From Candidatus Tayloriibacteriota bacterium (GTDB taxonomy: Bacteria; Patescibacteriota; Minisyncoccia; Phycocordibacterales; SIBU01), in contig JACPHR010000018.1 of assembly GCA_016188455.1 (NCBI GenBank), positions 5,079 through 69,078 on the forward strand: a DNA stretch of 64,000 nucleotides. The letters are read 5' to 3'. The notes under the pieces are model-generated. The model was not told the DNA's origin and ran no database searches. It saw nothing but the letters and a program-made list of their open reading frames with translations. Every line of letters starts with the position of its first letter. The stretch's first letter is position 1. Shown here piece after piece: positions 10,530 to 60,770 of this stretch. The position numbers and the translations under genes were made by a program.

Positions 10530-10548
10530 TTGGTGTCAGGTACCTTTT
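10372..10548. repeat. Tandem array of 11-12-bp units (AATTGGTGTCA[T/G]) ending in GGTGTCAGGTACCTTTT (two copies)
   Basis: About 12 direct units read directly. Terminal 17-mers at 10473-10489 and 10532-10548. Confidence 0.7.
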
Positions 10549-10579
10549 ATTTTCCAACATTTCATGATACACTCTCATC

Positions 10580-11260: not shown

Positions 11261-11480
11261 CACCAATTCCTCAATTCCTGACACCAATTCCCCAATTCCA
11301 ATTCCTGACACCAATTCCCATTGGGAGCAGTAAAATGGGTCAAGCGGACAGTTGATAAATTTGATTTACTTTTAACCACGCGCTTGCGTGGAAGGCCGAA
11401 AGATGAAAAAGGTACCTGACACCAATTCCTCTGACACCAATTCCTGACACCAATTCCCTGACACCAATTCCACAGGTTAC
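11247..11480. repeat. Inverted copy of the 11-bp repeat array (TGACACCAATT units) with AAAAGGTACCTGACACC ends, including a 106-bp tandem duplication of the RAYT 3' end
   Basis: 11161-11266 is repeated at 11320-11425 (period 159 bp). The unit orientation is the reverse complement of the upstream array. Confidence 0.65.
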
Positions 11481-11557
11481 TTTTCCCACTAATTACCTAA
11501 ATAATTAATAACGGTATGAAAAACCCACACCTCCTGGAGAGGTGCGGGGTAAGAGGT

Positions 11558-17275: not shown

Positions 17276-17284
17276 AAGCTATTG

Positions 17285-17393
17285 TGAATTACGAAACTGG
17301 CGTGCTTCAAGAAACCCCTCCCGCTTGCCCCCCGTAAGGCCTTGAGCGCGCGGGAGGGGTTTCTTTTCGCACTAAGCAAGCCCTCGTAATTCA
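17285..17393. mobile_element. Family-A palindromic MITE-like element
   Basis: tgaattacgaaactgg...ccctcgtaattca ends; inner stem gaaacccctcccgc/gcgggaggggtttc. Fills the intercistronic gap between two minus-strand genes. Confidence 0.55.
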
Positions 17394-19109: not shown

Positions 19110-19127
19110 GAATTTGGTGTGAATGGC

Positions 19128-19225
19128 GAAGTTCGCTTTCGGCGCAGAGAAACCCCTCCCGCGCGCCTTGGCTGGACTCTAGGCAAGCGGGAGGGGTTTC
19201 TTGAAGCGCGAGCTTCGCCATTCAC
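19128..19225. mobile_element. Diverged family-A element
   Basis: gtgaatggcgaagttcgc...gcgagcttcgccattcac ends (12/16 identity with the canonical TGAATTACGAAACTCG). Same internal gaaacccctcccgcgcgccttg...caagcgggaggggtttc core. Confidence 0.45.
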
Positions 19226-19253
19226 GGAAATTTAATGACAGATTTTCTCACAG

Positions 19254-24967: not shown

Positions 24968-25822
24968 CTAGAACTGCCGCGGCGGGTGAAAAGTTTTTCT
25001 GGCCGATTCCAGTTTTTGGAGATTGCCGATATCTATGAAATAACCGGTTGTCGGGTAGGCATACAAGGCCTTTTTTGAAGCGAGCAACTTCGGGTAAATG
25101 TCCGCGCCAAAGTCGCTTTTCAGCGACTCTGGGATGAAATCAAAAATTTCCGGTTCCAAAACGTAAAATGAGCCGTTGACGAAGACGGGCTCGCCCCGCG
25201 TGTCTTTCACGGTCGGACGCTCTATAAATTCTAAAATCCTGTTCGTATCGTCAAATTTTATCATGCTCTTTGGGTCTGGCCCCTCTCTTTTGTAGACGTT
25301 CAAGGTGGCGAAGGCCTTTGTTTTTTTGTGGCCCTCAATCATTTTAGTGACATCAAGCTCTCTTACAATATCGGCGTATGTCACGATGAAACTTTCCTTG
25401 ATATAGGACTTCCGCAGTCGGCGCATTTCTTCGTTGCTTCGCTCGTTTGCTCCCGCAGTGTATATGCATACACTTTGGTCGCAAGCCTCGCTCGCGCCTC
25501 GAACTGCATCCGACTGCGTAGGTCCTATGATGAATTTTTTAGCGAGGGTTATGGCGCCGGCGGTGCCGAGGGGATTTTTCGGGTCTTCGTGCGTATAGGC
25601 GATGCGCACACCGAATTTGGAACCATCACCAAAGTAAGAAACTACTTTCTCCGGCAAATGACAAAGGGCGATGATAAAATCTTTGACGCCGTGGCTTTTT
25701 AATAAATCAACCGTGTGGAAAAGAATGGGTTTGCCCCCGACCTCCAGCATCGGTTTTGGGGTAGTATCGGTGAAAGGCCGCAGTCTTTCTCCTTTTCCTC
25801 CTGCGACAATTATGGCTTTCAT
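24968..25822 (-). CDS. Sugar-phosphate nucleotidyltransferase (HddC / mannose-1-P guanylyltransferase-like) carrying an in-frame 40-codon repeat-element insertion
   Basis: MKAIIVAGGKGERLRPFT...GGKPIL N-terminus. The segment IGPTQSDAVRGASEACDQSVCIYTAGANERSNEEMRRLRKSY is encoded by the family-B element (25406-25525). Confidence 0.7.
   Translation of the reverse strand: MKAIIVAGGKGERLRPFTDTTPKPMLEVGGKPILFHTVDLLKSHGVKDFIIALCHLPEKVVSYFGDGSKFGVRIAYTHEDPKNPLGTAGAITLAKKFIIGPTQSDAVRGASEACDQSVCIYTAGANERSNEEMRRLRKSYIKESFIVTYADIVRELDVTKMIEGHKKTKAFATLNVYKREGPDPKSMIKFDDTNRILEFIERPTVKDTRGEPVFVNGSFYVLEPEIFDFIPESLKSDFGADIYPKLLASKKALYAYPTTGYFIDIGNLQKLESARKTFHPPRQF
25406..25525. mobile_element. Family-B palindromic element inserted in frame within a coding sequence
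   Basis: 120 bp. Ends ggacttccgcagtcgg / ccgactgcgtaggtcc. Reverse-complement match to the intergenic copy at 39740-39862. Confidence 0.6.
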
Positions 25823-29594: not shown

Positions 29595-29602
29595 TAACAT
29601 GA

Positions 29603-29710
29603 CCTTGAATTACAAAACTCATTGCTCCAAGAAACCTCTCCCGCTTGCCTAACTCCGGACAAGGCGCGCGGGAGGGGTTTCTCTCCGCGGATAATGAGTT
29701 TCGTAATTCA
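29603..29710. mobile_element. Family-A palindromic MITE-like element
   Basis: ccttgaattacaaaactcat...atgagtttcgtaattca perfect ends. Core ccggacaaggcgcgcgggaggggtttc. Ends 7 nt before the next ATG. Confidence 0.55.
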
Positions 29711-29717
29711 CAGTAAT

Positions 29718-31627: not shown

Positions 31628-31673
31628 TCCTTCCGCCTCTCAGGATACTCTGGATACTCTGAAAATCTCCTTG

Positions 31674-31709
31674 TTACCTAACTCAAGCGTACGCTTGAGT
31701 TAGGTAACA
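31674..31709. repeat. Perfect 36-bp palindrome (copy 1 of 2)
   Basis: gttacctaactcaagcgtacgcttgagttaggtaac. Identical 41-mer context at 43032-43072. Confidence 0.6.
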
Positions 31710-31784
31710 TAGGTGACAGGTGACCGGTGACAGATGTTTTCGCGACACAGTCAGTGTTTATGATTGACGGCTTTGTTGGTATAT

Positions 31785-31840: not shown

Positions 31841-32599
31841 TTAGGCGCCGTCCCGCCATTCAAGATACTTCAGTACCTCATCTGTGGCAAGTAAGTGGAC
31901 TGACGAGCACTGTTTGGCATAATGCGGGATTTTACGCAGACTCTCAAGAAGGGTCCCGTTCCGTAAGGCGGTTTTCAGAAACATCAATCCGTCCGCCCCA
32001 AGCCGCATCAGCTTGCTCTGTCGCTGATATCGTTTGATGCGACGCAGTTCCTCCACAATAAGGTCCTGGCGTGTAGCCATAAGAATCCCCTGAGAGTGCA
32101 GGACTTTTTGGTCCCAAGGCAACGTTGAACCGACCTGATTGTAAACTCGTAGGGTCGTGTTCTGCAGAAGCCTTATCGCGGTTACCATGGAGATGAATGC
32201 TCGGAGCTGGTGAAAAGGGGCAGCGACAATGATGAGCTTTCCCCACCCTTGGTCGTGGGCGTATTTCGCCAAGGCCTTGGCTTCCGAAAAAGTGTGCCCC
32301 AGTTCCAGACAAGGGATGCCGGTGATTTGAGAGGCGCGCACACCGCCTTCAGACAAGTGCTTTTTCCATACCCCGATTCCCTCATAGCCCTTGTTTTTTT
32401 CACCTTGAGCGTCATGTAGCAGAAGCCTTGAGACCACATTATCACGCAAAAGCTCTGCACCTCTCTCAAGCACGGAGTGTTTATTATCCGCTGTCTGGCC
32501 AAAGAGGTATGCCGCGGGAGCACGGTGAATCGTATCCGTCAGCACCATCGTTGCGAGCTGAAGCAGTTTTTCCGCCTCCGTAGGTTGAGTTTGAAGCAC
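31841..32599 (-). CDS. DUF218 (YdcF/ElyC-like) domain protein
   Basis: ...HTFSEAKALAKYAHDQGWGKLIIVAAPFHQLRA matches the DUF218 core. Confidence 0.45.
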   Translation of the reverse strand: MLQTQPTEAEKLLQLATMVLTDTIHRAPAAYLFGQTADNKHSVLERGAELLRDNVVSRLLLHDAQGEKNKGYEGIGVWKKHLSEGGVRASQITGIPCLELGHTFSEAKALAKYAHDQGWGKLIIVAAPFHQLRAFISMVTAIRLLQNTTLRVYNQVGSTLPWDQKVLHSQGILMATRQDLIVEELRRIKRYQRQSKLMRLGADGLMFLKTALRNGTLLESLRKIPHYAKQCSSVHLLATDEVLKYLEWRDGA

Positions 32600-36867: not shown

Positions 36868-37449
36868 TTAATCGTTTTCCGGATTACCGCTATGCAAAAC
36901 TCGACGGCTGTTCGTTGAATCAATTTTCCAATATGGAATGACGCTCCAAAAATGTTTCTCGCCGCCTAAAACCTGCTTGACAATCACTTTCATACGAACA
37001 TTTTCCAGTACGGCGATAAATTCATAGAATGTTACTTCTTTCAAAACATGCTCCCAGCGACTACTTGTTTTTTGGTCCTCAAACTTTTTCGTAGACCAAA
37101 TACCTTGAACGGTGTGAGATTTTCTTAGCACTTCTGCCACAAATGGCAACAACTTCAATCGGGTATATTGGTCATCCCGCACTCGAGCAACCTGATCTGA
37201 CTTGAATTTGAGATGTTTTAACCCTTTAGTGTTGAAAGAAATCTTCTCTTTAAAATATGGGCAGTAAATCTCACCGATAGACGCGTAAAGTTTCTCGGCT
37301 TTATTGCTTACTTCCACAAAATCTTTTTCGTCTTTGAGATTAAATGTGCCCATGGTTTTAGTGTTTCGTCGCGTCCACCAACTTGTATAACGACCCTGCT
37401 TTGTGAGTAGGCGACAATGTTTTGCCTTTAACGCCCGTAATTTCTTCAC
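36868..37449 (-). CDS. Hypothetical protein (lower GC than neighbours)
   Basis: 193-aa ORF, basic N-terminus, no recognisable motifs, composition visibly more AT-rich than the flanking sugar genes. Confidence 0.4.
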   Translation of the reverse strand: MKKLRALKAKHCRLLTKQGRYTSWWTRRNTKTMGTFNLKDEKDFVEVSNKAEKLYASIGEIYCPYFKEKISFNTKGLKHLKFKSDQVARVRDDQYTRLKLLPFVAEVLRKSHTVQGIWSTKKFEDQKTSSRWEHVLKEVTFYEFIAVLENVRMKVIVKQVLGGEKHFWSVIPYWKIDSTNSRRVLHSGNPEND

Positions 37450-39729: not shown

Positions 39730-39739
39730 TTTGGGTATA

Positions 39740-39862
39740 GGACTTACGCAATCGGATGCAGTTCGAGGCGCGAGCTCGGCTTGCGACCAAGCTGTAGTTA
39801 GATGCTACTGCGCGGGAGCAAACGAGCGAAGCAACGAAGAAATGCGCCGATTGCGTAAGTCC
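39740..39862. mobile_element. Family-B palindromic element (intergenic copy)
   Basis: Perfect 16-bp ends ggacttacgcaatcgg / ccgattgcgtaagtcc. Interior matches the copy inside the nucleotidyltransferase gene. Confidence 0.6.
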
Positions 39863-39974
39863 TAAAGAAATAATCACCACATGGTCGCATATTCATCGGC
39901 AAAAATCAATCAACTACCGCGCAGCAAACTGACTAGGTATACCGAGTCAGACTTGCTGGCAGTGCGGTAGTTGA

Positions 39975-40076: not shown

Positions 40077-40160
40077 TTGATTATCCGCAAGCCACCTCAA
40101 AAATTTCCGGTGGGCGGATAATAAAAAATTGAAAAATCCAAACCGTTTGCTATGATTGCT

Positions 40161-40267
40161 TTGAATTACGAAACTCGTTTTTTGCGGAGAGAAACCTCTC
40201 CCGCGCGCCTTGTCCGGACGGGAGGCAAGCGGGAGGGGTTTCTCGAAGCAAGAGTTTCGTAATTCAA
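40161..40267. mobile_element. Family-A palindromic MITE-like element
   Basis: ttgaattacgaaactc...gagtttcgtaattcaa perfect 16-bp ends. Core ccttgtccggacgggaggcaagcgggaggggtttc. Lies 27 nt upstream of the nadE start. Confidence 0.55.
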
Positions 40268-40293
40268 GACATGATTACACCCATTACGTTTCT

Positions 40294-42105
40294 ATGCGTA
40301 TAGCCATACTACAACTCAATTACACAGTCGGAGATTTTGAAGGAAACGCGGCCAAGATTCTTCAAGGCTATCGTCGCGCCCGCAAAGAAGGGGCGGAGGT
40401 AGTGCTCGGGACGGAGCTCTCGCTCTTCGGCTACCCGCCGCTTGACCTGTTGGAACGCGCTGACTATATTGCGAAACAGTACGATGAATTAAAAAAATTG
40501 ACCGCCAAAATCGGCGGCGTCCCTCTGGTCATAGGCGTTGCCGAGAAAAACGAAAACAAAAAAGGCAAACCGCTTTTTAACAGCGCGGTTGTTATTCACA
40601 ACGGGCGGATTGTTCACCGCGCGCGCAAGACACTGCTTCCCACCTATGATGTCTTTGACGAGTCGCGTTATTTTGAAGCCAACGACGGGCCGGTTCGGCC
40701 TTGGGTATACAAAGGCAAAAAAATCCTTATACTGCTCTGTGAAGATATTTGGAACGGGTCCGAGAACGCCGACAATAAACTCTACCATACCTTGAATTAC
40801 GAAACTGGCGCTTCGAGAACTTCTTCCCGCCCGCCTGCCAGCGCCGGAGCCGCAGGCTATGGCGGGCAGGCTTGCTTCCCGTCCGGACAAGGCGCGCGGG
40901 ATGAAGTTCTCTTAGCGGAAACCGAGTTTCGTAATTCAAGGTACCACAAGGACCCGCTTATAGAAGCCAAGGCGCTTTCTCCCGATTTGGTATTGGTCAT
41001 CAACGGCTCGCCCTATTTTTGGGGCAAGGGAGACGGGCGGCTGTCGCTTGTCTCGGGCATCGGCCGGCGCTTGCGCTGCCCGATATTTTACGCCAATCAA
41101 GTGGGCGGCAATACGGACCTGGTTTTTGACGGGCGAAGTTTCGCGGTGGACGGAAATGGCAGATGCATCGGAGCCGCCAAACCGTTCGCCGAGGATGTCT
41201 TGATGGTTGATACCAAAACAGCCAAAGCGGTTGCATATTCCTCCGATGCTGGCAAACCGGAAGAACTTTACAACGCGCTTGTCTGCGGGGTCCGTGACTA
41301 CTTGAGGAAAATCAAAAACACCAAAGGAGTGGTGGTGGGGCTTTCGGGCGGCGTTGATTCGGCGCTGGTCGCTACCATCGCCGTGGACGCGCTCGGTGCG
41401 GACAAAGTGCGCGGCATTGCTATGCCCTCGACCTTCTCCTCCGATGAGAGTGTCATTGACGCCAAGACCCTGGCGGAAAATCTTGGCATTCAATTTGACG
41501 TTGTTCCCATTAAAAAAGCCTACGGCTCTTTCGGAGAAATACTCGGGCCGGTCATTGGCTGGGAAAAGCCGCTTGCCTTGGCCGAAGAGAATGTGCAAGC
41601 GCGCGTTCGGGGCCTGATTTTGATGGCCATTTCAAATCGCGAGGGCAATATTGTGCTCACCACCGGAAACAAATCGGAGATTGCGGTGGGCTACTGCACG
41701 CTCTACGGGGACATGGCCGGGGGCTACGCCGTGATTTCGGACATTCCCAAGACGGTTGTCTACAGCTTGGCGGAATACCGGAACGCTAAAGCCAAGAAAG
41801 ACATCATTCCGCGCCGCAGCCTTGAAAAGGCGCCGTCCGCCGAGCTTCGGCCAAACCAGAAGGACCAGGACACCTTGCCGCCTTATGACGTGCTTGACGA
41901 TATTTTAGAGCAGTATGTTGAAGAGCAGAAAGGTCTAGCTGATATTGTTAAATCGGGGCACAATCCAAAAACGGTGGAGTGGGTAATCCAGACGATTGAC
42001 AGGAACGAGTATAAACGTCGGCAGATGCCGCCCGGGCCGAAGGTCACGGGCAAAGCCTTCGGCAGCGGCCGGCGGATTCCCATCGCGGCCAAGTTTATCC
42101 TGTAG
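40294..42105 (+). CDS. nadE: Glutamine-dependent NAD+ synthetase carrying an in-frame repeat-element insertion
   Basis: N-terminal CN-hydrolase domain (...ILILLCEDIW...) plus C-terminal NAD synthetase (VVGLSGGVDSALVA, ...SDE..., ...GYCTLYGDM...). Start refined to MRIAILQL. Confidence 0.8.
   Translation: MRIAILQLNYTVGDFEGNAAKILQGYRRARKEGAEVVLGTELSLFGYPPLDLLERADYIAKQYDELKKLTAKIGGVPLVIGVAEKNENKKGKPLFNSAVVIHNGRIVHRARKTLLPTYDVFDESRYFEANDGPVRPWVYKGKKILILLCEDIWNGSENADNKLYHTLNYETGASRTSSRPPASAGAAGYGGQACFPSGQGARDEVLLAETEFRNSRYHKDPLIEAKALSPDLVLVINGSPYFWGKGDGRLSLVSGIGRRLRCPIFYANQVGGNTDLVFDGRSFAVDGNGRCIGAAKPFAEDVLMVDTKTAKAVAYSSDAGKPEELYNALVCGVRDYLRKIKNTKGVVVGLSGGVDSALVATIAVDALGADKVRGIAMPSTFSSDESVIDAKTLAENLGIQFDVVPIKKAYGSFGEILGPVIGWEKPLALAEENVQARVRGLILMAISNREGNIVLTTGNKSEIAVGYCTLYGDMAGGYAVISDIPKTVVYSLAEYRNAKAKKDIIPRRSLEKAPSAELRPNQKDQDTLPPYDVLDDILEQYVEEQKGLADIVKSGHNPKTVEWVIQTIDRNEYKRRQMPPGPKVTGKAFGSGRRIPIAAKFIL
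40789..40940. mobile_element. Family-A palindromic element inserted in frame within nadE
   Basis: Perfect 18-bp ends ccttgaattacgaaactc / gagtttcgtaattcaagg. Encodes ...TLNYETGASRTSSRPPASAGAAGYGGQACFPSGQGARDEVLLAETEFRNSRY... without interrupting the frame. Confidence 0.6.
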
Positions 42106-42134
42106 ACTTTTTCCCGTTTCGAATTAAATCAATT

Positions 42135-42917
42135 ATGAATGAGCTGATGTATAAGGTAAAAAGAAAACTCTTACACCTCATTGGCAGTGGATGGGGTTAC
42201 TCTGGCGACTATCAAAACTGGAACCACCCTACATTTACCAGATATGATGATCCGATTATTTTTCAAAGAACACAAAAAGCTTTTGAAATGGTTAAGGCCA
42301 ACAATGCGTTATATGTTCGAGACAGCACACCGGTAAGGACTAGAGAGTATAACACCACTCTCACCAACATCTTAGATAGAATCTCAAGAGAGAGAGAGAG
42401 AGAGAGGATTGTCCTGCTAGATTTTGGAGGAGGAATGGGAACTGCGTACTTTCAAAACAAAGAACGGCTACCTTTAATGGATTGGAATATTGTTGAGCAG
42501 AAGAACCTGATTGATTACATGACAAAGGAGATACCTTACAGGTTTGGCTTGTTTACTGACACACAGGATTGTATTTACCAAAAGGATCCTGATGTCGCAT
42601 TATTTTCTGGTTCTCTGCAGTACATTGAACATCCTTATAAAATTCTGGGTTTAGTTGCCAAAACGGTTGATTATATTATTTTTGATCATACGACATTCAT
42701 TGACGCAGAAAAGGATCGTCTTACTCGACAAATCATCAATCCAAAAATCTACCCGGCACGCTTTCCTTGTTGGTTTTTTAGCGAAAACAAGATCAAGAAT
42801 TTTTTATCGCAATATGGCTTTCGATTTGAATCAGAATCTGATACAAAATCCATCAAATTAAAGGGAGTACAAGCCGCTTATAAAGATATGTTTTTTATAA
42901 AAACTCGAGTAAAATAA
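42135..42917 (+). CDS. Putative SAM-dependent methyltransferase on a low-GC cassette
   Basis: LLDFGGGMGTAYF (motif I-like). Markedly AT-rich relative to nadE. Flanked by an identical 29-mer at 42079-42107 and 42948-42976. Confidence 0.45.
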   Translation: MNELMYKVKRKLLHLIGSGWGYSGDYQNWNHPTFTRYDDPIIFQRTQKAFEMVKANNALYVRDSTPVRTREYNTTLTNILDRISRERERERIVLLDFGGGMGTAYFQNKERLPLMDWNIVEQKNLIDYMTKEIPYRFGLFTDTQDCIYQKDPDVALFSGSLQYIEHPYKILGLVAKTVDYIIFDHTTFIDAEKDRLTRQIINPKIYPARFPCWFFSENKIKNFLSQYGFRFESESDTKSIKLKGVQAAYKDMFFIKTRVK

Positions 42918-42947
42918 AAACAGCGTCATTTGTGTGATTTTTCAGCT

Positions 42948-42976
42948 CCCATCGCGGCCAAGTTTATCCTGTAGAC
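42948..42976. repeat. 29-bp direct repeat of the nadE 3' end (second copy)
   Basis: cccatcgcggccaagtttatcctgtagac identical to 42079-42107. Confidence 0.7.
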
Positions 42977-43031
42977 CTTATTATCTGCCCGCAGAATATC
43001 CAGCACTTGCTTTATCTTAATCTTACCTAAT

Positions 43032-43067
43032 GTTACCTAACTCAAGCGTACGCTTGAGTTAGGTAAC
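43032..43067. repeat. Perfect 36-bp palindrome (copy 2 of 2)
   Basis: gttacctaactcaagcgtacgcttgagttaggtaac; identical to 31674-31709. Confidence 0.6.
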
Positions 43068-43218
43068 ATAGGGCAATCGTTATTCGGTAAAAATGGCGTT
43101 GAGTCAACCTACCTAGCGGTGTGATTTTTCTCTAGTGAATGGGGTTATAGAAGCCGATTGAAAAGGCCGCCAGTGTTTGCTATGATTACGCGCACTGTCG
43201 CATTGAGTCACATAATAA

Positions 43219-44469
43219 ATGTCTCTAATTACGATGAAGGTTACTAAGACTAAAACAAAAAAAAATATCCGGGTACCCTATCTTTTGACCGTTTACGGCA
43301 AGGAGGAGATAAAGGCGGTCAATGAAGTTTTGAAAGACCCGACCAAAATCTCAAGCGGGCCAAGGGTGCGCGAATTTGAACAAAAAATCGCGGGGATGTT
43401 CGGCAAAAAATTCGGCGTCATGGTCAATTCCGGTTCCTCGGCCAACCTTTTGGCCGTGGACGCGCTTAACATGCCCAAAGGTAGCGAAGTCATCACCCCA
43501 ATTCTCACTTTTGCCACTACCGTCTCGCCCATCGTGCAGAGGGATTTAGTGCCGGCTTTTGCGGATGTAGAAGAGGGAACTTACCAGATTAATATAAACC
43601 AGATTGGCAGTTTGCTTTCCAAAAAGACCAAGGCGCTCATGATCCCGTCTCTCATTGGCAATATGGCCGACCTTTCTAAACTGAAAGCTTTCGCGAAGAA
43701 ACACAAGCTTTGGTTCATTGAAGATTCCTGCGATGTGCTGGGCGCCAAATTTGCCGGCCGGCCGACCGGAAGCTATTCGGATGTTTCCACCACCAGCTTC
43801 TACGCCGCCCACGTTATCACCACCGCGGGCGCGGGCGGCGTGGTGGCCTTTCACGACGGCGCGCTGGCCAAGCGGGCCCTTATCAAAGCCAACTGGGGGA
43901 GGGAGTCAACGCTTTTTGGTTTTTACGAAAAATCGGAAGAGCTAAAGAAACGTTTCGCCGGCGCACTCGGGGGCATGCCGTATGACGCCAAATTTATTTT
44001 CAGCGAACTGGGCTACAATTTTCAGTCAACGGAAATCAACGCCGCTTTCGGTTTGGAGCAACTCAAACGATTCCCGAAATTTGTCGCCCGCCGCAAACAA
44101 AACGCGGCGGCGCTCTTAAAATTTTTCAAACGCTATGAAGCCTTTTTCATTTTGCCGGTAGAACACCCCAAAGCAGAAACTTTCTGGCACGCTTTTCCGC
44201 TCACTATCAGAAAAGGCGCCCCATTCACCCGTCTTGAGATTACGAAATATCTTGAGGAAAGAAATATTCAAACCAGGCCGATTTTTACGGGCAACATTTT
44301 GAGGCAGCCGGCCTTCCGCCATATAAAAGCCAAGACGTTAAAAGAGGGCTATCCCGTGGCCGACCATATTATGCGCAACGGGTTTCTGATAGGGTGCAAT
44401 CATGGATTGGGAGAAAAACATATTGCCCATCTGTTCGATTCTTTTGAGCAGTTTCTCAAGAACAAATAA
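43219..44469 (+). CDS. DegT/RfbH-family PLP-dependent enzyme (CDP-6-deoxy-hexulose 3-dehydrase / sugar aminotransferase-like)
   Basis: About 416 aa with ...VNSGSSANLLAV... and ...DSCDVLGAKF... (Lys region); the length fits RfbH/DdhC-type. Confidence 0.6.
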   Translation: MSLITMKVTKTKTKKNIRVPYLLTVYGKEEIKAVNEVLKDPTKISSGPRVREFEQKIAGMFGKKFGVMVNSGSSANLLAVDALNMPKGSEVITPILTFATTVSPIVQRDLVPAFADVEEGTYQININQIGSLLSKKTKALMIPSLIGNMADLSKLKAFAKKHKLWFIEDSCDVLGAKFAGRPTGSYSDVSTTSFYAAHVITTAGAGGVVAFHDGALAKRALIKANWGRESTLFGFYEKSEELKKRFAGALGGMPYDAKFIFSELGYNFQSTEINAAFGLEQLKRFPKFVARRKQNAAALLKFFKRYEAFFILPVEHPKAETFWHAFPLTIRKGAPFTRLEITKYLEERNIQTRPIFTGNILRQPAFRHIKAKTLKEGYPVADHIMRNGFLIGCNHGLGEKHIAHLFDSFEQFLKNK

Positions 44470-45456: not shown

Positions 45457-45471
45457 ATCAAAGTTTCTTAA

Positions 45472-45691
45472 TATTGAATTACAAAACTCTTGCCAAGAGA
45501 TTCCCTTTCCACAAGCCTCGGCTCCGGACAAGGCGCGTGGAAGCGGAAAAGGTCTCTTTCCGCGAACAATCCGCATCTTTTAAGGGTATCACCGATACCC
45601 AGAAATGGCTTTTAGCCGCTATCGCGGCTAAAAGCCATTGTTGAACATTTTATGTAGCGGGAGGTGACTGAAAAAGAATTTCGTAACTTAG
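45472..45691. mobile_element. Family-A-related composite element (diverged ends, extra internal hairpins) flanked by a 10-bp direct repeat AGTTTCTTAA
   Basis: ttgaattacaaaactcttgcc...agaatttcgtaactta. Core ccggacaaggcgcgtggaagcgg. Internal 15-bp perfect stem atggcttttagccgc/gcggctaaaagccat. Direct repeats at 45462-45471 and 45692-45701. Confidence 0.45.
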
Positions 45692-54059: not shown

Positions 54060-54088
54060 AGCGCGCGACTTAGGGTTGCGCGCTTTTT
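54060..54088 (+). terminator. Rho-independent terminator
   Basis: agcgcgcgac-ttagg-gttgcgcgct followed by tttttctttt. Confidence 0.5.
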
Positions 54089-54093
54089 CTTTT

Positions 54094-54172
54094 CGCCAGT
54101 TTTCTCTATTCTCTATTTTCTATTCTCTACTCTACTCTCTATTCTCTACCCTCTATTTTCTAACTTTCGGAT
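54094..54172. repeat. Short tandem CTATTCTCT/CTATTTTCT repeat tract
   Basis: tctctattctctattttctattctctactctactctctattctctaccctctattttc. Inverted and direct copies lie at 55074-55140 and 55203-55252. Confidence 0.6.
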
Positions 54173-55073
54173 AATTTTCCACAAACCAATTAACGGTCTG
54201 CTCTATGCCTCCGTCAACCGGAGTAAACTTAAAATCCGGCAGGTACTTTTTCAGTTTCGTTCCGTCCGACGGTTTGCGGAACTGGCCGTCGGGTTTAGAG
54301 CCGTCAAAAACGATTTTGCCCGTGAACCCCATTTTTTTGGCGATGACGAGGACGAGGTCGCGTATGGAGGTTTCAATACCGGAGGTAAATATGATCGGCG
54401 CTGACTCTTTGTAATTATCAAGCATCCACAGCGCCAGTTTGGCAATGTCATCCGTCAACACCAGTTCGCGCAAAGGTTTGCCGCTGCCCCAGACGACCAG
54501 GTCCGTATTATTTTTCTTGGCCAGGTAGCATTTATGGATGAGAGATGGCACCACGTGGCCGTCCGTGAAATTAAAATTATCATTCGGGCCGTAGATGTTT
54601 GTGGGAATGGCGATAATGTAATTGCAGCCCCACTCGCTGTTATAGGCGCTGCTTTGCACTTCAAGCATCCTTTTGGCGTAGGCATAGCCGAAATTTGAAG
54701 GATGAGGCGGGCCGTTATGCAGGTCTTTTTCGTTGAGCGGGTAGGGGCACTTGTCGGGGAAGACGCAGGTGGACATGAAAGAAATCAGTTTTTTGACGCC
54801 GGTCAATCGCGCCGCTTCCAAGACGTTGATGTTTATCATGATGTTGTTGCGGAAGTATTCCCCGGAGTGAATCATGTTGCCGCCGATGCCGCCCACTTGG
54901 GCGGCCAGATGAATCACTTTCGCCGGCCGGTGCTTTTTGAAGAGCTTCACGGTTTGGTTAAAATCGGTCAAGTCGCCGTCTTTCCGAGAAAGAAAAACCA
55001 TATTTGGCAGACCCAATCTTTTAATGGCCGAACCGATAAGGCCGCTGCCTCCCGTGACTAATGTTATAGACAT
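54153..55073 (-). CDS. GDP-L-fucose synthase family epimerase/reductase (paralog)
   Basis: ITLVTGGSGLIGSAI...YAYAKRM...NIYGPNDNFN...HVVPSLI pattern of Fcl/WcaG. Confidence 0.65.
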   Translation of the reverse strand: MSITLVTGGSGLIGSAIKRLGLPNMVFLSRKDGDLTDFNQTVKLFKKHRPAKVIHLAAQVGGIGGNMIHSGEYFRNNIMININVLEAARLTGVKKLISFMSTCVFPDKCPYPLNEKDLHNGPPHPSNFGYAYAKRMLEVQSSAYNSEWGCNYIIAIPTNIYGPNDNFNFTDGHVVPSLIHKCYLAKKNNTDLVVWGSGKPLRELVLTDDIAKLALWMLDNYKESAPIIFTSGIETSIRDLVLVIAKKMGFTGKIVFDGSKPDGQFRKPSDGTKLKKYLPDFKFTPVDGGIEQTVNWFVENYPKVRK

Positions 55074-55252
55074 AGATAATAGATGTTAGAAAACAGATAA
55101 TAGACGGTAGAAATTAGAGAATAGAAAATAGAGATTAGACTTTTTAAGAAATTGCCTTGATAAATTTGTTAAGCATTTTCGTAATTATTAGTTTTCATTT
55201 CTTTCTGTGTTCTATTTTCTATTCTCTACTCTCTATTTTCTATTCTCTCATA
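55074..55252. repeat. Inverted pair of CTATTTTCTATTCTCT-type repeat tracts with a 70-nt AT-rich spacer
   Basis: gagaatagaaaatagag (55115-55131) opposed to ctctattttctattctc (about 55225-55245). Confidence 0.55.
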
Positions 55253-56266
55253 TAAGATTTTTTGCCACTCTACAGTGCGAGAGAGTCCCTCGTCAAGCGG
55301 CACATAATCGGTTTTCTTGAATTCATTTTTCACTCTCGTCATATCTAGTTGGGTATCAAGTGGCGCGCCCGCTCCCAAGTTCTCTGATCTTGAAACCGCC
55401 GGAAAAACCACCGGCACCTTGAGCAATTTGCCGATTTTCTTCGCTAAGTCAGCAATGGTGATGGTTCCCGCGCCGCCGACATTGTAAATTGGTTCTTTGC
55501 CGAAAAGCAGTATCCGCCAGAGAATTTCCACGGCGTCGCTTACATAACAGTAGGTTCTTTTAACCTCACCATGATCCAGGAGCGTTAATTTGCCCCGCAG
55601 AGCTTTTTCAATGAAAGCATTGATAACCCGCTTGTCTCCCGGTTTCGTGCCGGGACCGTAGGCTAACGATAGCCGCGCCGATTTTGCGTCAACGGCTTGG
55701 GCTCTTTCGGCGTTGACGATGGCCTCTCCGCATCTTTTGCCCTCAATGTAGCAAGCTCTCGGGTGCGCGGTGTTTGTCGTGCCTATCATGTCCTCCCCGT
55801 AGGGGGTCGTCTCCAATCCGCTGTAGACTTCGCTGGTGCTCATAAAAAGGAACTTGCCGCCCTTCTTTAATTTTTGAAAGAGAGCGATGGTCACTGTCGT
55901 GTTAAGCCCCATGGTTTTTAGGGGATTCTCCAGAAATTTCCCGGGTTGGCCGTAGCCGGCGGCATGGATAATATAATCCGCTTGGGGCAGTGAGGCCATC
56001 AGTTTCGCATTGGTCAAATCGCCCTGTACGAAGCCCACATTTTCTCCAAAATAAGAAAGATATTCGGGAAATTTATTTTGCACGACGGCGACGATATCCA
56101 TCTTCACGCCTTTGTTCCGCAGCTCTCTTAAAGTTGCCAAAAAATACGTGCCAATGAGCCCGGACGCGCCAGTCAAGAGTATGGTTTTGCCGTCAAGTTC
56201 GCGAAAATCAATCTTCGGCAAGATTTCCAAAACGTCATTTTTAATTATGGTCGCAAGCTCATTCAT
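55226..56266 (-). CDS. NAD-dependent epimerase/dehydratase
   Basis: ILLTGASGLIGTYF..., YxxxK (YIEGKRCGE). Confidence 0.65.
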   Translation of the reverse strand: MNELATIIKNDVLEILPKIDFRELDGKTILLTGASGLIGTYFLATLRELRNKGVKMDIVAVVQNKFPEYLSYFGENVGFVQGDLTNAKLMASLPQADYIIHAAGYGQPGKFLENPLKTMGLNTTVTIALFQKLKKGGKFLFMSTSEVYSGLETTPYGEDMIGTTNTAHPRACYIEGKRCGEAIVNAERAQAVDAKSARLSLAYGPGTKPGDKRVINAFIEKALRGKLTLLDHGEVKRTYCYVSDAVEILWRILLFGKEPIYNVGGAGTITIADLAKKIGKLLKVPVVFPAVSRSENLGAGAPLDTQLDMTRVKNEFKKTDYVPLDEGLSRTVEWQKILYERIENRE

Positions 56267-58062: not shown

Positions 58063-59353
58063 CGGATTGCTTGTTTTGGTCAGAGACTAATTTTAAGGTC
58101 CACCGGTTTTTTATGAAAATTTTTCCTTCCGGTTTTTCCGCCGGATGCGCCTGGTTGAAGTACGCCGACGGCCCGACGGTTACGGTTTTTTCTATGGTGT
58201 GTTTAGCGAGATAATTCATGACCGAAAAACGATTCAGGCTTAAACTGACGAAATAATTTCCCGGCATCAGCAATTTTTCCGGGAACAGCAAAGTTGCTTG
58301 GTATCTGCCCTTGGCGACCCGTTCAAGTTCCGGCTGCCAGTCGGAAGTGAAACTTCTTGTTAGCACGTCGCCAAGGGCGTTTTTTAAGTACACGCCCGCG
58401 CGGAAAAGCGAAAGGTTGGCGTGCGCCTCAAAGTCAATTTCAACGGTAAACGGCGTGTCCGCGTCCAAATGGGCCGTACGGATGTTTTTCTGGCTTACCG
58501 CGAAATCATGAAGTGTCACTTCGCCTTTAAGTTTCAACGGAAAAAGTTTTTCGTGGCCGGAGCTTTTTTCGTACTCGGCGGCCAGATAATGCCGGATAAC
58601 GTCTCTCGTCTCGCCCGCTTTGACGATTTTGCCGTGAGACAGAAGAATTGATGTGGGGCAAAGCTTTTCCACCGCTGACATATTGTGGCTGACGAAAAGA
58701 ATCGTCCGGCCGGCTTTGCCGGTGACCTCTTCCATTTTACCCAAACACTTTTTTTGAAACTCGGCGTCGCCGACGGCCAGCACTTCGTCAACCAGAAGGA
58801 TGTCGGGTTCAATGTGGGCGGCGATGGAGAAAGCCAGACGGACGTACATGCCGGTGGAATAGCGTTTGACCGGCGTATCAATGAAATCGCCGATGCCGGA
58901 GAAATCAACGATGGCGTTAAATTTCTCTCCGATTTCTTTGCGAGTCATGCCCAAGATGGCCCCGTTGAGGAAGACATTTTCGCGGCCCGACAGCTCGGGA
59001 TGAAAACCGGTGCCCACTTCCAGGAGCGAGGCCACCCGGCCGTTCAGTCTGACTTCCCCTTCGGTCGGCGGGGTGATTCGGGAGAGAATTTTCAGCAGGG
59101 TTGACTTGCCGGCGCCGTTAGCCCCGATAATGCCCACCGCTTCGCCTTTTTTGACTGAAAGGTTTATGTTTCGCAACGCCCAAAAAGTTTCCATTCGGTT
59201 TGTGCCCATGATGTTTCTGCCGATGCCCGCCAGCGCCGAGAGCGGATGTTTTAATTTTTCCGATATTACGTCGCGCAGCGCTACGTATCCCCGTTTCCTT
59301 CCGGTGATGTTATAACGTTTGCCGACGTTTTTTATTTCTATAATGGATAACAT
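58052..59353 (-). CDS. wzt: Polysaccharide ABC transporter ATP-binding protein with C-terminal carbohydrate-binding domain
   Basis: Walker A GANGAGKST, LSGGQ-like YSTGMYVRL, Walker B ILLVDE, plus an about 180-aa C-terminal extension typical of Wzt/TagH. Confidence 0.75.
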   Translation of the reverse strand: MLSIIEIKNVGKRYNITGRKRGYVALRDVISEKLKHPLSALAGIGRNIMGTNRMETFWALRNINLSVKKGEAVGIIGANGAGKSTLLKILSRITPPTEGEVRLNGRVASLLEVGTGFHPELSGRENVFLNGAILGMTRKEIGEKFNAIVDFSGIGDFIDTPVKRYSTGMYVRLAFSIAAHIEPDILLVDEVLAVGDAEFQKKCLGKMEEVTGKAGRTILFVSHNMSAVEKLCPTSILLSHGKIVKAGETRDVIRHYLAAEYEKSSGHEKLFPLKLKGEVTLHDFAVSQKNIRTAHLDADTPFTVEIDFEAHANLSLFRAGVYLKNALGDVLTRSFTSDWQPELERVAKGRYQATLLFPEKLLMPGNYFVSLSLNRFSVMNYLAKHTIEKTVTVGPSAYFNQAHPAEKPEGKIFIKNRWTLKLVSDQNKQSDES

Positions 59354-59420
59354 ACGAAAATTATAAGATACGAAAACTATGCGAATGGCTACGAAATGAT
59401 ACGAAAATTGCGGGGTACGA
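59341..59420. repeat. AT-rich TACGAA-motif repeat (about 60 bp; direct copy of 60705-60770) overlapping the wzt start codon
   Basis: catacgaaaattataagatacgaaaactatgcgaatggctacgaaatgatacgaaaatt. Confidence 0.45.
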
Positions 59421-59425
59421 ATTTG

Positions 59426-59836
59426 CTAATGCAGAAAATGATTATCAATATGGATGATTCTTACGGGTTTTAAAAATTTTTGTCTGAAGTTTGCAAGCAT
59501 GCCGAGTTTTAAATCGGTTTGTTGAAGATAGTTTTGCACTTGTCTATAATTATCTTTAGTGATAAAACGCGCGGATTTTATCTCTAAAATGATTTTTCCT
59601 TCAATAACAAAATCAAGAATGTTTCCGGTGCCGGCTATGGAAACTTCTCTTTCAAATTTTATGCCTTCTCTCAGTAATTTTTCCGCAATAGCATTCCCAT
59701 ACTGTTTTTCTCGAGCGAAACAACCGAGCTCTCTGTGGACTTTGAATAATACGCCATTCAAATCATAAGACAGTTTGGGATATATGACTTGGGGTCCGTA
59801 CGCGGGCTTATTTTGTTTTTTTGCTTCTGATTCCAT
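59426..59836 (-). CDS. GxxExxY family protein
   Basis: ...HRELGCFAREKQYGNAIAEKLLREGIKFEREV...DFVIEGKIILEIKS matches GxxExxY (PD-(D/E)xK-like). Start refined to MESEAK; the longer ORF reads into the repeat. Confidence 0.65.
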   Translation of the reverse strand: MESEAKKQNKPAYGPQVIYPKLSYDLNGVLFKVHRELGCFAREKQYGNAIAEKLLREGIKFEREVSIAGTGNILDFVIEGKIILEIKSARFITKDNYRQVQNYLQQTDLKLGMLANFRQKFLKPVRIIHIDNHFLH

Positions 59837-59854
59837 GATTTTTTTATTTAAATT

Positions 59855-59900
59855 TTCGTTGTAATTCGTCATCATTCGCATAATTTTCGTATGTTACACG
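59855..59900. repeat. Inverted partial copy of the TACGAA-motif repeat
   Basis: Reverse complement cgtgtaacatacgaaaattatgcgaatgatgacgaattacaacgaaaatt. Confidence 0.4.
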
Positions 59901-60709
59901 ATGTCCGCGAAATACCGTTCGGTTTTTTTGAAAAAGAAAATGCCAGCGGCCAAAAGCGCCAGGGCGGCCAAGGAGGAAATCGCCAGCGACTGCCAGCCTA
60001 TCGGTCCCGTGCCCAAGAGCCCCGCCCGGGCGGCTTTGATGACGCCGGTCATGGGATTAAAAGAGAGCAGCCAAGCGTATTTGCCGGCGATGCTTGAGGG
60101 GTAAATGACCGGCGTGAGGAAAAGCAGCAGTTGCATGAAGAAAGGCAATACGTAGCGCACATCGCGGTATTTGACGTTTATGGAGGCTAGTATCAATCCC
60201 GCGCCCACCGCCGTGGCGGAGGTGATAATCAAGAGAATCGGTATAAGCGCTATCCCGGAGAATCGCGGCGCGTAGCCGTAGTGGAACATGAGGAAGATTA
60301 AAGCCAGGCTGGCGAAAAAAAGGTCAACGAATTTGTTGGCGGTGTCGGCCAGCGGCAGAATGATTCGCGGGAAATAAACTTTGGTGACGATGGCGGCATT
60401 GCCGATGAGCGAGTTGCTGGTATCGCTCAAGGCGCTCGCGAACAGTTGCCAGAATAAGAGGCCGGTATAGACGAAGATGGGGTAGGGAATGCCGTCCGAC
60501 GGCACCTTGATCAGTTTTCCGAAGAACACGCTGAACACCACCATGGTCATAAACGGCTGGAAAATGGCCCAGCCGATGCCGACAATGGTTTGTTTGTAGC
60601 GCACCTTGATGTCGCGCCAAACGAAAAAGTACAGCAGTTCTTTGTAGCGCCAGATTTCCCTCAAGTCTTCAAGGCTGAAGGTTTTTTTTGGTTTTATTAC
60701 AGTTACCAT
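59894..60709 (-). CDS. wzm: Polysaccharide ABC transporter permease (ABC-2 type)
   Basis: Six predicted TM helices; ...LLYFFVWRDIKVRYKQTIVGIGWAIFQPF... typical Wzm N-terminus. Confidence 0.7.
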   Translation of the reverse strand: MVTVIKPKKTFSLEDLREIWRYKELLYFFVWRDIKVRYKQTIVGIGWAIFQPFMTMVVFSVFFGKLIKVPSDGIPYPIFVYTGLLFWQLFASALSDTSNSLIGNAAIVTKVYFPRIILPLADTANKFVDLFFASLALIFLMFHYGYAPRFSGIALIPILLIITSATAVGAGLILASINVKYRDVRYVLPFFMQLLLFLTPVIYPSSIAGKYAWLLSFNPMTGVIKAARAGLLGTGPIGWQSLAISSLAALALLAAGIFFFKKTERYFADIV

Positions 60710-60770
60710 ACGAAAATTATACGATACGAAAACTATGCGAATAATTACGAATGATTACGAAAATTTAAGA
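60705..60770. repeat. AT-rich TACGAA-motif repeat overlapping the wzm start codon
   Basis: catacgaaaattatacgatacgaaaactatgcgaataattacgaatgattacgaaaatt. Confidence 0.45.

Follow-up and report, generated by a model that had tools for sequence, protein, structure and literature searches.

How does a single gene of foreign composition come to lie directly behind the NAD+ synthase gene of a glycan-biosynthesis cluster, and what might it contribute there? The question is raised by a MAG of an uncultured groundwater bacterium, Candidatus Taylorbacteria (CPR/Patescibacteria), of which we analyzed a 64-kb stretch of DNA (hereinafter the window). The whole of the window constitutes a glycan-biosynthesis cluster, with genes for nonulosonic-acid and sugar-nucleotide synthesis, glycosyltransferases and Wzm/Wzt export. 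We lean towards the view that the gene, which codes for a TIGR04325 methyltransferase, was gained recently by horizontal transfer as a single-gene cassette, that it is bounded by a 30-bp recombination scar, that it undergoes phase variation via an (AG)n tract and that it has a role in a surface glycan.

The Locus and Its Native Genes

The nadE gene (40294..42105, forward strand, with the true start at the ATG at 40294) codes for a 603-aa glutamine-dependent NAD+ synthase. Its product combines the Pfam CN_hydrolase and NAD_synthase domains, matches the NCBIfam model NF010588 at 640 bits and is 100% identical to the NCBI entry 'MAG: NAD+ synthase [Candidatus Taylorbacteria bacterium]'. Alignment to the two closest relatives, which served as comparison genomes (L010 and L011), reveals an in-frame repeat insertion of 159 nt within the gene (40783-40941). 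The native neighbor 3′ of nadE codes for a DegT/DnrJ-family sugar aminotransferase (43219..44469, forward strand; hereinafter DegT). It has its own sigma-70-like promoter, TTGAAA-17-TGnTATGAT (43158..43186, forward strand), which is conserved in both relatives and lies downstream of the second copy of the 36-bp palindrome discussed below. The 57 ORFs of the window have a mean GC content of 0.496 (sd 0.041), and in the window ORFs scanned we found no integrase, resolvase or DDE transposase. At 10580-11260 there is a RAYT-like Y1 transposase ORF whose score of 61.9 bits falls short of the cutoff of 80; it is flanked by arrays of TAATTGGTGTCA, a sequence unrelated to the 36-bp palindrome.

The Methyltransferase Gene and Its Product

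Between nadE and DegT lies an ORF of 260 aa (42135..42917, forward strand), the only one carried by the insert. Its GC content of 0.372 is about three standard deviations below the locus mean and its GC3 is 0.368, as compared to about 0.6 in the neighboring genes. The low GC content named in a preliminary description of this DNA is likewise evident in 300-nt windows, with values of 0.35-0.40 across 42100-43150 versus 0.54-0.57 in nadE. The ORF starts 29 nt past the stop codon of nadE, and we found no promoter-like site in the interval up to its ATG; we predict that it is co-transcribed with nadE and that the transcript ends, or is stabilized, at the palindrome further downstream.

Sequence and structural model together identify the product as a putative SAM-dependent methyltransferase of the TIGR04325 (LIC12133) family with a class I SAM-MTase fold. 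It scores 127.2 bits against that model (curated NCBIfam cutoff 80), with residues 22-234 covering model positions 2-206 of 234. The SAM-binding motif I reads LLDFGGGMG, and D96, G98, G99 and G102 are invariant in the homologue alignment. Its AlphaFold model has a pLDDT of 82.5, and Foldseek places SAM-MTases without exception at the top of its PDB matches (probability 1.0, TM about 0.5); sugar methyltransferases are among the matches, as are EvdMO1 and DesVI. No close homologue emerged from a search of 5.8 billion proteins, the best being 37% identical; the cassette has no phage matches, and its sole plasmid matches are about 30% identical.

Members of the TIGR04325 family are found in O-antigen and polysaccharide loci, and those of the LIC12133 type in O-antigen/rfb loci of, for example, Leptospira (PMC8055020). 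The present protein resembles them in its above-cutoff HMM score, its equal length and motif I, as well as in its setting in a polysaccharide locus with adjoining DegT-type aminotransferases and glycosyltransferases. It differs in being at most 37% identical to any of them and in a unique repeat-encoded RERERER insertion. The family is without a solved structure or characterized substrate. From the genomic context, we predict that the sugar methylated here belongs to the surface glycan that the locus produces.

An (AG)n Tract with Variable Length

The RERERER insertion is encoded by an (AG)10 simple-sequence repeat inside the ORF (42387..42406, forward strand), placed just before motif I. It is the sole dinucleotide tract of six or more units in the 64 kb. 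The alignment shows that homologues are without a repeat at this position, RERERER taking the place of a non-repetitive loop.

Per-sample Logan contigs, used as independent assemblies, are available from eight runs of one groundwater project and match the window with 100% identity everywhere but in this tract, over as much as 2176 nt. Ten units are present in SRR12113422 and in the MAG, eleven in six runs and twelve in one. Gene calling yields a single product of 260 aa for (AG)10, as compared to 95 + 160 aa for (AG)11 and 121 + 160 aa for (AG)12; thus, among the three lengths seen, only (AG)10 gives an intact ORF, the others being frameshifted. These tract lengths are those of per-sample consensus contigs rather than read counts. 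They seem to be a signature of slipped-strand phase variation, in which mispairing within the tract would stochastically switch the methyltransferase ON and OFF and maintain a population with mixed surface glycans.

Two other explanations, which we take together and regard as unlikely but as the most serious competitors, are that the length differences are a sequencing or assembly artifact or that they reflect the passive decay of a recently acquired, useless gene that is a pseudogene in most cells. PCR-based libraries are prone to stutter in dinucleotide tracts, and the comparison of consensus contigs instead of reads leaves room for such an effect. The frameshifted (OFF) alleles also prevail, in seven of the eight runs, and this majority would fit a decaying gene as well. 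On the other hand, three consensus lengths recur in independent assemblies that are otherwise identical over 2.2 kb, while an A9 tract, many A8/T8 tracts and 5.6-11.4 kb of neighboring contig sequence are free of indels. Further, the ORF apart from the tract is without any mutation in every sample, and the repeat occupies the place of a non-repetitive loop, being missing from all homologues.

The arrangement, as far as it can be read from sequence, recalls known SSR contingency loci, among them the LOS genes of Haemophilus and Neisseria and, in Campylobacter jejuni, the genes for capsule and LOS methyltransferases and transferases (for reviews, see PMC11868660, PMC8437040, PMC6321876). As in those loci, the length of an intragenic tract shifts the frame of a gene for a glycan-modifying enzyme in a polysaccharide locus and, judging by the consensus contigs, several lengths coexist in one population. 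In contrast to the poly-G or tetranucleotide tracts usual there, the repeat here is a dinucleotide, and the bearer is a free-living or episymbiotic groundwater CPR organism rather than a host-adapted pathogen. Our literature searches found no paper on SSR-based ON/OFF switching in CPR/Patescibacteria.

Anatomy of the Insertion

The duplication that first drew attention to the locus had been described as a 29-mer. It is real, being present in exactly two copies (42079-42107 and 42948-42976) and occurring twice in none of 100 shuffles, but BLAST adds one base to give a sharp-edged 30-mer, TCCCATCGCGGCCAAGTTTATCCTGTAGAC (hereinafter DR1). Copy a (42078..42107, forward strand) lies at the nadE end and comprises the last eight nadE codons, the TAG stop and 2 nt. 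Copy b (42947..42976, forward strand) duplicates this nadE 3′ end in non-coding sequence and is identical in 30 of 30 positions. The copies recur with a period of 869 bp, and the unique sequence between them amounts to 839 bp. Because independent Logan contigs reproduce 40884-43059 with both copies included, an assembly artifact is unlikely as the source of the duplication.

The two ends of the insert resemble native sequence of the nadE–DegT interval. The cassette head (42108..42134, forward strand) consists of a native-like spacer followed by an 11-nt leader; within it, TTTTCCCGTTTCGAA (42109-42123) is identical in 14 of 15 positions to the nadE-downstream spacer of L011 and matches it in position, a similarity equaled in one of 2000 shuffles. 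The cassette tail (42918..42946, forward strand) contains copy a of a second repeat (DR2), GTGTGATTTTTC (42932-42943, forward strand), and a 3-nt junction filler, AGC. Copy b of this repeat (43119..43130, forward strand) is a motif upstream of DegT that is conserved in all three species; the tail matches the window's own version of it in 12 of 12 positions (16 of 2000 shuffles are as good). The two pairs interleave in the order DR1a..DR2a-AGC-DR1b..DR2b, which from the sequence appears to be the topology of a duplication junction. Following DR1 copy b is a native post-nadE spacer of what we term the 'B' type (42977..43031, forward strand), shown by alignment to be orthologous to the spacer of L010. 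No terminal inverted repeats were found at the cassette ends.

Both relatives are without the methyltransferase. In L010, nadE is followed after 46 nt by the identical 36-bp palindrome and then by DegT, so that the nadE-to-palindrome succession suggested for checking in relatives does occur; in L011, 105 nt separate nadE from DegT. Because both closest relatives lack the gene, the methyltransferase is best taken as a recent insertion, with the palindrome there first. The coding 30 nt of DR1 show four to five differences between the three species, yet the non-coding copy b remains 30/30 identical to its partner; hence, the duplication is younger than the species split. Together with the 37% identity of the best homologue, the absence of the gene from L010 and L011 bears out the insertion posited at the outset, and the relatives do not show the gene and the duplicated 29-mer as a shared ancestral feature. 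The reading of the methyltransferase as a single-gene insertion of foreign composition, placed directly behind nadE, is accordingly supported.

How the Cassette May Have Arrived

One-side-anchored illegitimate recombination, whether homology-facilitated or by microhomology-mediated template switching, can leave short duplications and filler bases. We propose that the incoming DNA came from a related haplotype, which had nadE and the methyltransferase gene in a short spacer like that of L011. It would have been connected at the nadE end, while the right-hand join was illegitimate, used the 3-nt filler AGC and fell 30 nt to the upstream side of the left one. Such a displacement of the right join would have duplicated the nadE tail as the 30-bp repeat. 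Template switching, homology-facilitated illegitimate recombination or a single crossover of a circularized fragment would each produce the same topology. As in known insertions of this kind, the sequence runs on from nadE without a break on one side and meets an abrupt junction with a 3-nt filler on the other, and target sequence is duplicated with no transposase signatures; unlike them, the duplication of 30 bp is rather long, and the mechanism is here read from the junction anatomy only.

Such a scar appears to fit the sequence better than transposition or att/integron integration, because there are no terminal inverted repeats or recombinase, the spacer ends are native-like and the DR2 pair is interleaved with DR1. 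The reconstruction would rest on the 15-nt and 12-nt similarities at the two ends. None of the collections searched yielded a donor haplotype with the order nadE-methyltransferase-DegT and no duplication of the 30-mer. If the donor was diverged, both copies of the 30-mer must come from the recipient; otherwise, the donor must be nearly conspecific. Logan contigs, built with k=31, are blind to the empty-site variant because the 30-bp repeat creates no new 31-mer.

Site-specific integration, favored in the preliminary description, would make the 30-mer the common core of attL and attR and the insert a small non-autonomous element mobilized by a tyrosine recombinase encoded elsewhere. We judge this improbable. 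It agrees with much of what is displayed by integrative elements that target gene 3′ ends and carry a copy of them: perfect, sharp-edged direct repeats of a typical att-core length, a conserved gene whose 3′ end is the target and is reconstituted, empty sites in relatives and foreign composition of the insert. This mode of entry is nevertheless disfavored by the lack of terminal inverted repeats and by the absence of an integrase both from the cassette and from the window ORFs scanned. Further, the supposed element arm beside attL is the native nadE-downstream sequence, at 14/15 versus L011, and the native DegT-upstream motif lies at the opposite cassette end, whereas integrative elements have arms of their own at the inner flanks, with no relation to the native target. 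An element of 839 bp with a single cargo gene would be unusually small, and across all collections searched the cassette has a single genomic context.

Less probable still is an ancestral origin of both the methyltransferase and the repeats, with later loss of the gene in the relatives; deletion between the 30-bp repeats would then give the arrangement of L010. The nadE-palindrome-DegT order in L010 is indeed the predicted product of such a repeat-mediated deletion, and the gene content of the locus differs between species at several places. A long residence is contradicted by the lack of amelioration, as seen in the GC3 of the gene relative to its neighbors, and by the perfect identity of copy b despite the interspecies differences in the coding copy. 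Nor is a homologue of more than 37% identity found anywhere, and L011 is without both the cassette and the palindrome.

The 36-bp Palindrome

The palindrome occurs in exactly two copies in the window. Copy 1 (31673-31708; one position before the coordinates first given) lies between the convergent epimerase gene (ending at 31627) and ORF 31841-32599. Copy 2 (43032-43067), which predates the cassette and would form a hairpin of about 16 bp, had been placed immediately downstream of the repeat; it is close by, but 55 nt past DR1 copy b. The context shared by both sites, reported as 41 bp, measures 42 nt (31672-31713 = 43031-43072). The folding energy of the 81-nt stretch around each copy lies between −35 and −41 kcal/mol (z between −8 and −10), that at copy 2 being about −35 kcal/mol. 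Searching beyond the window recovered one further copy in L010 and one in a JGI contig. Overall, the identical palindrome is found at no fewer than four intergenic sites in three or more genomes, each of them 3′ of genes and two of them flanked by convergent genes; in one genome (L093) such a position between convergent genes is terminator-like.

We regard the palindrome as a dispersed, conserved intergenic element, separate from the insertion and older than it. It resembles REP/REPIN or terminator-type palindromes in being dispersed, intergenic and capable of a strong hairpin, with a RAYT-like gene in the same window; unlike REP/REPIN, it has only two copies in the 64 kb, and the repeats flanking the RAYT-like gene are unrelated to it in sequence. 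In contrast to a canonical intrinsic terminator it lacks a U-tract: no T-run follows it and a terminator scan finds nothing there. Since the genome has classical terminators with T-runs elsewhere, some of them nearby, a terminator role is uncertain. Two functions assigned to it earlier are not supported. It is not an attachment site, given that L010 has the identical 36-mer with no cassette and that 55 nt separate it from the repeat in the window. Nor do the two copies delimit an imported block: the intervening 31.7-43.0 kb are syntenic with L011, which is palindrome-free, at 63-90% amino acid identity, the differences being three genes found only in the window, two only in L011 and one GT2 that is only 32% identical.

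We also considered, as a very improbable reading, that the 30-bp repeat and the palindromes together constitute an unrecognized site-specific gene-capture system in CPR glycan loci. Promoter-less single genes would be inserted and removed beside conserved genes and palindromes by a recombinase encoded elsewhere, in an integron-like cassette exchange with no canonical IntI/attC, and the 30-bp repeats would allow precise excision. It draws on genes missing from a relative adjoining both palindromes and on the fit of the palindrome ends to the attC core consensus.

A true integron-like cassette, with the palindrome as its attC-type recombination site, is barely credible. The attC core sites have the consensus R″=RYYYAAC and R′=GTTRRRY; the shortest known attC sites measure about 57 bp (range about 57-141 bp), and they are imperfect palindromes with extrahelical bases that form the immediate end of a cassette, in a system with an IntI integrase and an attI site. 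The palindrome ends, ACCTAAC and GTTAGGT, match the letters of this consensus, a lone promoter-less ORF precedes a palindrome, and genes absent from L011 adjoin both copies. Against this, the palindrome is perfect, with no bulges or extrahelical bases, and only 36 bp long; the empty site of L010 has it too; the second 30-mer and 55 nt lie between it and the cassette; in L093 it sits between convergent genes, as a terminator would; and there is no cassette array, nor an IntI-type integrase among the window ORFs scanned. The integron reading is thus largely refuted, only the R″/R′ letters matching. Insertion of an IS element or transposon is disfavored: such elements have terminal inverted repeats, a transposase and target duplications of 2-14 bp, whereas the insert has no inverted repeats at its ends, no transposase and a 30-bp duplication.

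Implications for Surface Diversification in CPR Bacteria

The individual mechanisms discussed here are all known already and none is new. CPR/Patescibacteria are ultra-small, mostly uncultured and thought to live attached to other cells. Because of this presumed lifestyle, the glycans on their surface are likely to mediate both attachment to a host and exposure to phages. The locus suggests that two routes of surface diversification of the type seen in pathogens may be combined in one CPR organism: the capture of a foreign modification gene into a conserved glycan cluster, and the stochastic switching of the captured gene by a slippery repeat. The anatomy of the junction offers a concrete example of how a single gene may enter glycan loci with no mobile-element machinery. 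If this reading is correct, bet-hedging by phase variation would extend beyond host-associated pathogens, and differences in tract length between samples would allow metagenomes to be mined for contingency loci.

Locus context and the duplicated end of nadE

By Pfam and NCBIfam scans the entire 64-kb window is a single glycan-biosynthesis cluster, coding for many NAD-dependent epimerases/dehydratases, DegT aminotransferases, a NeuB fusion, UDP-sugar dehydrogenases, GT1, GT2, GT10 and GT11 glycosyltransferases, several methyltransferases and a Wzm/Wzt ABC exporter. Its nadE product matches, at 100% identity, an NCBI protein encoded on a 90.7-kb contig of a 'Candidatus Taylorbacteria bacterium' MAG, and the same sequence is present in the per-sample Logan assemblies of runs SRR12113383–SRR12113433. 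The neighbouring accession SRR12113421 was derived from Modesto (California) groundwater (He et al. 2021; bioRxiv 10.1101/2024.02.19.580942), and the accession range suggests that the Logan runs belong to the same project.

The preliminary description had reported a 29-mer flanking an AT-rich segment with a single putative methyltransferase (MTase) gene downstream of nadE. This 29-mer occurs exactly twice in the window, while no shuffled sequence contained two matches, and aligning an independent contig to the window by BLAST gives a direct repeat of 30 bp (TCCCATCGCGGCCAAGTTTATCCTGTAGAC; 42078–42107 and 42947–42976) with immediate divergence on either side. The repeat comprises the final eight codons of nadE, its stop codon and two further bases. 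A sliding-window check likewise bore out the low GC content, which is 0.35–0.40 over the insert as against 0.54–0.57 in nadE. The feature is real and an insertion, and the core idea of the preliminary description holds. The cassette has no terminal inverted repeats at its ends and no second ORF; across the window there is no Rfam family at threshold and no tRNA gene that might serve as an integration target.

Relatives and the order of events

Only two close relatives, L010 and L011, are present in the collections, both about equally distant from the window (~82% nucleotide identity in nadE). Scanning the GTDB representatives with nadE added no comparators, only distant homologues from other phyla (≤61% identical). 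L011 is syntenic with 29.6–53.3 kb of the window at 63–90% amino-acid identity and shows nadE, 105 nt and DegT, with both the methyltransferase and the palindrome discussed below absent. L010 has 46 nt after the nadE stop, then a 36-bp palindrome identical to that of the window, and then DegT, again with no methyltransferase. The finding is hence the opposite of a methyltransferase and duplicated repeat shared with relatives, the pattern that would have spoken against the proposed insertion after nadE. Since the window spacer following the second 30-mer aligns over its full length with the L010 spacer, the ancestral order was nadE–spacer–palindrome–DegT, with the cassette having entered between. 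Further, the second, non-coding 30-mer copy is identical at 30/30 positions even though the same 30 bases vary at 4–5 positions among the three species, so the insertion is younger than the species split.

Two other window ORFs, 31841–32599 (252 aa; adjoining the first palindrome copy) and 36868–37449 (193 aa, GC 0.404), have no family match and are missing from the otherwise syntenic L011; neither has duplications of ≥11 nt in flanking position.

A probable junction scar and the entry of the cassette

The ends of the insert resemble native DNA. Inward of the left 30-mer the insert begins with the 16 nt TTTTTCCCGTTTCGAA, of which 15 align locally, with 14/15 matches, to the L011 sequence after the nadE stop at the same place (1/2000 shuffles). 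At the other end the insert carries the 12-mer GTGTGATTTTTC (42932–42943), identical to 43119–43130 upstream of the DegT promoter, where the motif is conserved in both L010 and L011. Because both insert ends thus resemble native spacer, the truly foreign DNA would be confined to ~42124–42921, set in an L011-like short spacer. The repeats run in the order 30-mer ... 12-mer–AGC–30-mer ... 12-mer, which reads as a duplication-junction topology whose copies have unlike spacer haplotypes, namely a short 'A' type with the MTase and a 'B' type with the palindrome.

The simplest history would be a single recombination event with DNA of a related haplotype, anchored at the end of nadE, in which the second join would have been illegitimate, falling 30 nt upstream with three filler bases. 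The donor haplotype posited by this scar model would run from the MTase tail (...GTGTGATTTTTC) directly into TCTAGTGAATGG and on to DegT, lacking the second copy of the 30-mer. The topology would be the same for template switching, homology-facilitated illegitimate recombination and single crossover of a circularised fragment, and these data do not tell the three apart. The donor haplotype was not found in the collections searched, and a sliding comparison revealed no imported tract in nadE, identity to L010 and L011 being ~0.8 throughout, with no sign of a change of nearest relative towards the 3′ end. Among sister-sample contigs, those with the 406-aa partial product of nadE are all filled, although contigs built with k=31 would not reveal an empty site where the repeat is 30 bp long. 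Site-specific integration of the cassette is less likely, fitting the native-like inner flanks poorly; the window yielded a single transposase-like gene, which codes for a RAYT-like Y1 protein and lies 31 kb away. A 13/14 match between 42186–42199, inside the ORF, and 43134–43147 was judged compatible with chance and left unused. The junction scar is unusually informative.

The 36-bp palindrome

Two perfect 36-bp palindromes had also been described: both are present, at 43032–43067 and, one base from the position first recorded, at 31673–31708, with 42 nt common to the two sites. Their proposed roles are not supported. Against an attachment site, the palindrome is already present at the empty site in L010 and lies 55 nt from the repeat in the window. 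Against boundaries of an imported block, the two copies enclose DNA that is syntenic with L011 save for single-gene differences, and L011 lacks the palindrome.

The exact 36-mer has no match in GTDB species representatives or IMG/VR, nor the exact 29-mer in JGI metagenomes. A 28-nt palindrome core matched one unrelated JGI contig from another metagenome, Ga0209541_10198848 (L093), in which the identical 36-bp palindrome (857–892) separates a convergent 130-aa cupin-like ORF from a GFO/IDH/MocA oxidoreductase and has a GT1 gene fragment upstream, next to the oxidoreductase. The first copy in the window is also placed between convergent genes. The L093 copy shows the 36-mer to be a dispersed, perfectly conserved element associated with glycan loci. 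Folding of the 81-nt stretches around the two window copies gives -35 to -41 kcal/mol, with a dominant 16–18-bp stem. The palindrome is followed by no T-run and was negative in a terminator scan; canonical terminators with T-runs are present nearby. An integron attC is very unlikely: the end letters fit the core consensus, but the element is perfect, only 36 bp long and unattached to the cassette, and the scan of window ORFs turned up no IntI. We treat it as a conserved dispersed 3′-intergenic hairpin element, for which a terminator, an RNA-stabilising hairpin and a REP-like element are candidates.

In L010, the ~190-nt palindrome-bearing segment is bracketed by an imperfect direct repeat, CTTTTCTACAG ... 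TTTTCGTCTCTACAG (1883–2100), and is missing from L011, which hints that this segment might itself have entered the nadE–DegT spacer by target-duplicating insertion.

Other repeats and insertions in the window

A palindromic repeat family of ~70–170 nt, with the core TTGAATTACGAAACTCG...GAGAAACCyCTCCCGCGCGCCTTGTCCGGAC and its reverse complement, has one copy (40783–40941; 159 nt, 53 aa) inserted in frame in the CN-hydrolase domain of nadE. This insertion is missing from both relatives and leaves the ORF open (603 aa versus 550–557 aa). Further copies lie at 9906–9988, 17280–17377, 19107–19237, 29601–29717, 40150–40273 and 45466–45546. The family resembles the Rickettsia palindromic elements, though the host here is a CPR genome. 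Another family is MITE-like, ~125 nt long and bounded by terminal inverted repeats, TAGGACTTACGCA...TGCGTAAGTCCTA. Its copies, 90–96% identical, lie at 25404–25528, inserted in frame (~42 aa) in the NTP_transferase ORF 24968–25822, whose Pfam match is split there, and at 39737–39864, in the intergenic region upstream of nadE.

The Y1 (IS200-like) transposase is encoded by ORF 10580–11260 (226 aa), with REP-associated tyrosine transposase as its best NCBIfam match, whose 61.9 bits fall short of the cutoff of 80. Arrays of TAATTGGTGTCA (10394–10483) and the inverse TGACACCAATT (11251–11484) flank the ORF, and a perfect 115-nt duplication (11158–11272 and 11317–11431) overlaps its 3′ end. The region 10394–11484 may represent a RAYT/REP system in a CPR bacterium.

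Between wzt and wzm, ORF 59426–59881 (151 aa, GC 0.346) codes for a GxxExxY/PD-(D/E)XK_3 protein bracketed by inverted repeats of ATACGAAAA units (59348–59409 and 59851–59896; terminal 17 nt perfect), with a similar 82-nt block upstream of wzm (60684–60765). The stretch 59348–59896 might be either another single-gene, selfish-looking insertion or a shared regulatory array. Finally, degenerate heptamer-like arrays (TTCTCTA/TTTTCTA) at 54083–54168 and 55189–55274, intergenic and ~1.1 kb apart, flank the epimerase gene 54153–55073 and have an inverted partner at 55095–55139.

The inserted gene: a predicted glycan methyltransferase

The cassette ORF (42135–42917, 260 aa) has no Pfam match at default thresholds and matches NCBIfam TIGR04325 ('methyltransferase, LIC12133 family') with 127 bits against a cutoff of 80. 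Motif I (LLDFGGGMG) is kept in the alignment with its five best homologues. The PDB matches of its AlphaFold model (pLDDT 82.5) are exclusively class I SAM-methyltransferases, including the sugar methyltransferases EvdMO1 and DesVI; a sequence search against solved structures gave a best E of only 0.24. Other TIGR04325 members belong to polysaccharide loci, namely one on a metagenomic contig that also carries a flippase and GT1, one on a Caballeronia plasmid and the Leptospira rfb locus (PMC8055020). Family, motif, model and neighbourhood together are thus best read as those of a glycan or sugar methyltransferase. The closest homologue among 5.8 billion proteins searched is 37% identical, and the ORF (GC 0.372, GC3 0.368) lies three standard deviations under the window-ORF mean (0.496, sd 0.041). 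No phage or plasmid origin was found, with no viral loci, no phage tblastn match and plasmid homologues only ~30% identical.

The MTase ATG lies 29 nt past the nadE stop with no promoter-like site in that gap, and DegT has its own conserved promoter (TTGAAA-17-TATGAT) downstream of the palindrome; hence, the MTase is probably transcribed by read-through from nadE, and the message would stop at the palindrome or close to it.

A length-variable (AG)n tract and probable phase variation

Logan contigs from eight runs are 100% identical to window 40884–43059, or parts of it, save for one indel in the tract 42387–42406. The window and SRR12113422 have (AG)10, giving the intact ORF; SRR12113424 and three more runs with the same contig, as well as SRR12113384 and SRR12113430, have (AG)11, splitting the gene into 95 + 160 aa; and SRR12113433 has (AG)12, giving 121 + 160 aa. 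As compared between consensus contigs rather than by read counts, the frameshifted (OFF) alleles are in the majority among runs. Control contigs over the neighbouring 5.6–11.4 kb show 0–4 substitutions and no indel, even over the A9 tract 43257–43265 within the 5′ extension of the DegT ORF, a tract which is invariant in 7/7 sister-sample contigs and serves solely as a control for indel artefacts. The window DegT ORF starts with MSLITMKVTKTKTKKNIRV, and those of the relatives with MKNKNIRV.

The (AG)n tract is the sole long dinucleotide repeat in the window and encodes RERERER in a loop just ahead of motif I, where homologues are non-repetitive. Its length variation among consensus contigs has the hallmarks of phase variation by slipped-strand mispairing, here in a putative glycan-modifying enzyme. 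Such variation of glycan-modifying enzymes has been described in Campylobacter, Haemophilus and Neisseria (PMC8437040, PMC6321876, PMC11868660).

In the literature on phase variation and CPR or Patescibacteria we found no report of ON/OFF switching by simple sequence repeats (SSRs), the nearest case being a hypervariable repeat protein in a Gracilibacterium (PMC6851277). As far as this search found, the host phylum is thus one in which phase variation has not been described, and the MTase feature combines two known kinds there: a putative glycan-modification gene gained by horizontal transfer and an apparent SSR contingency locus.
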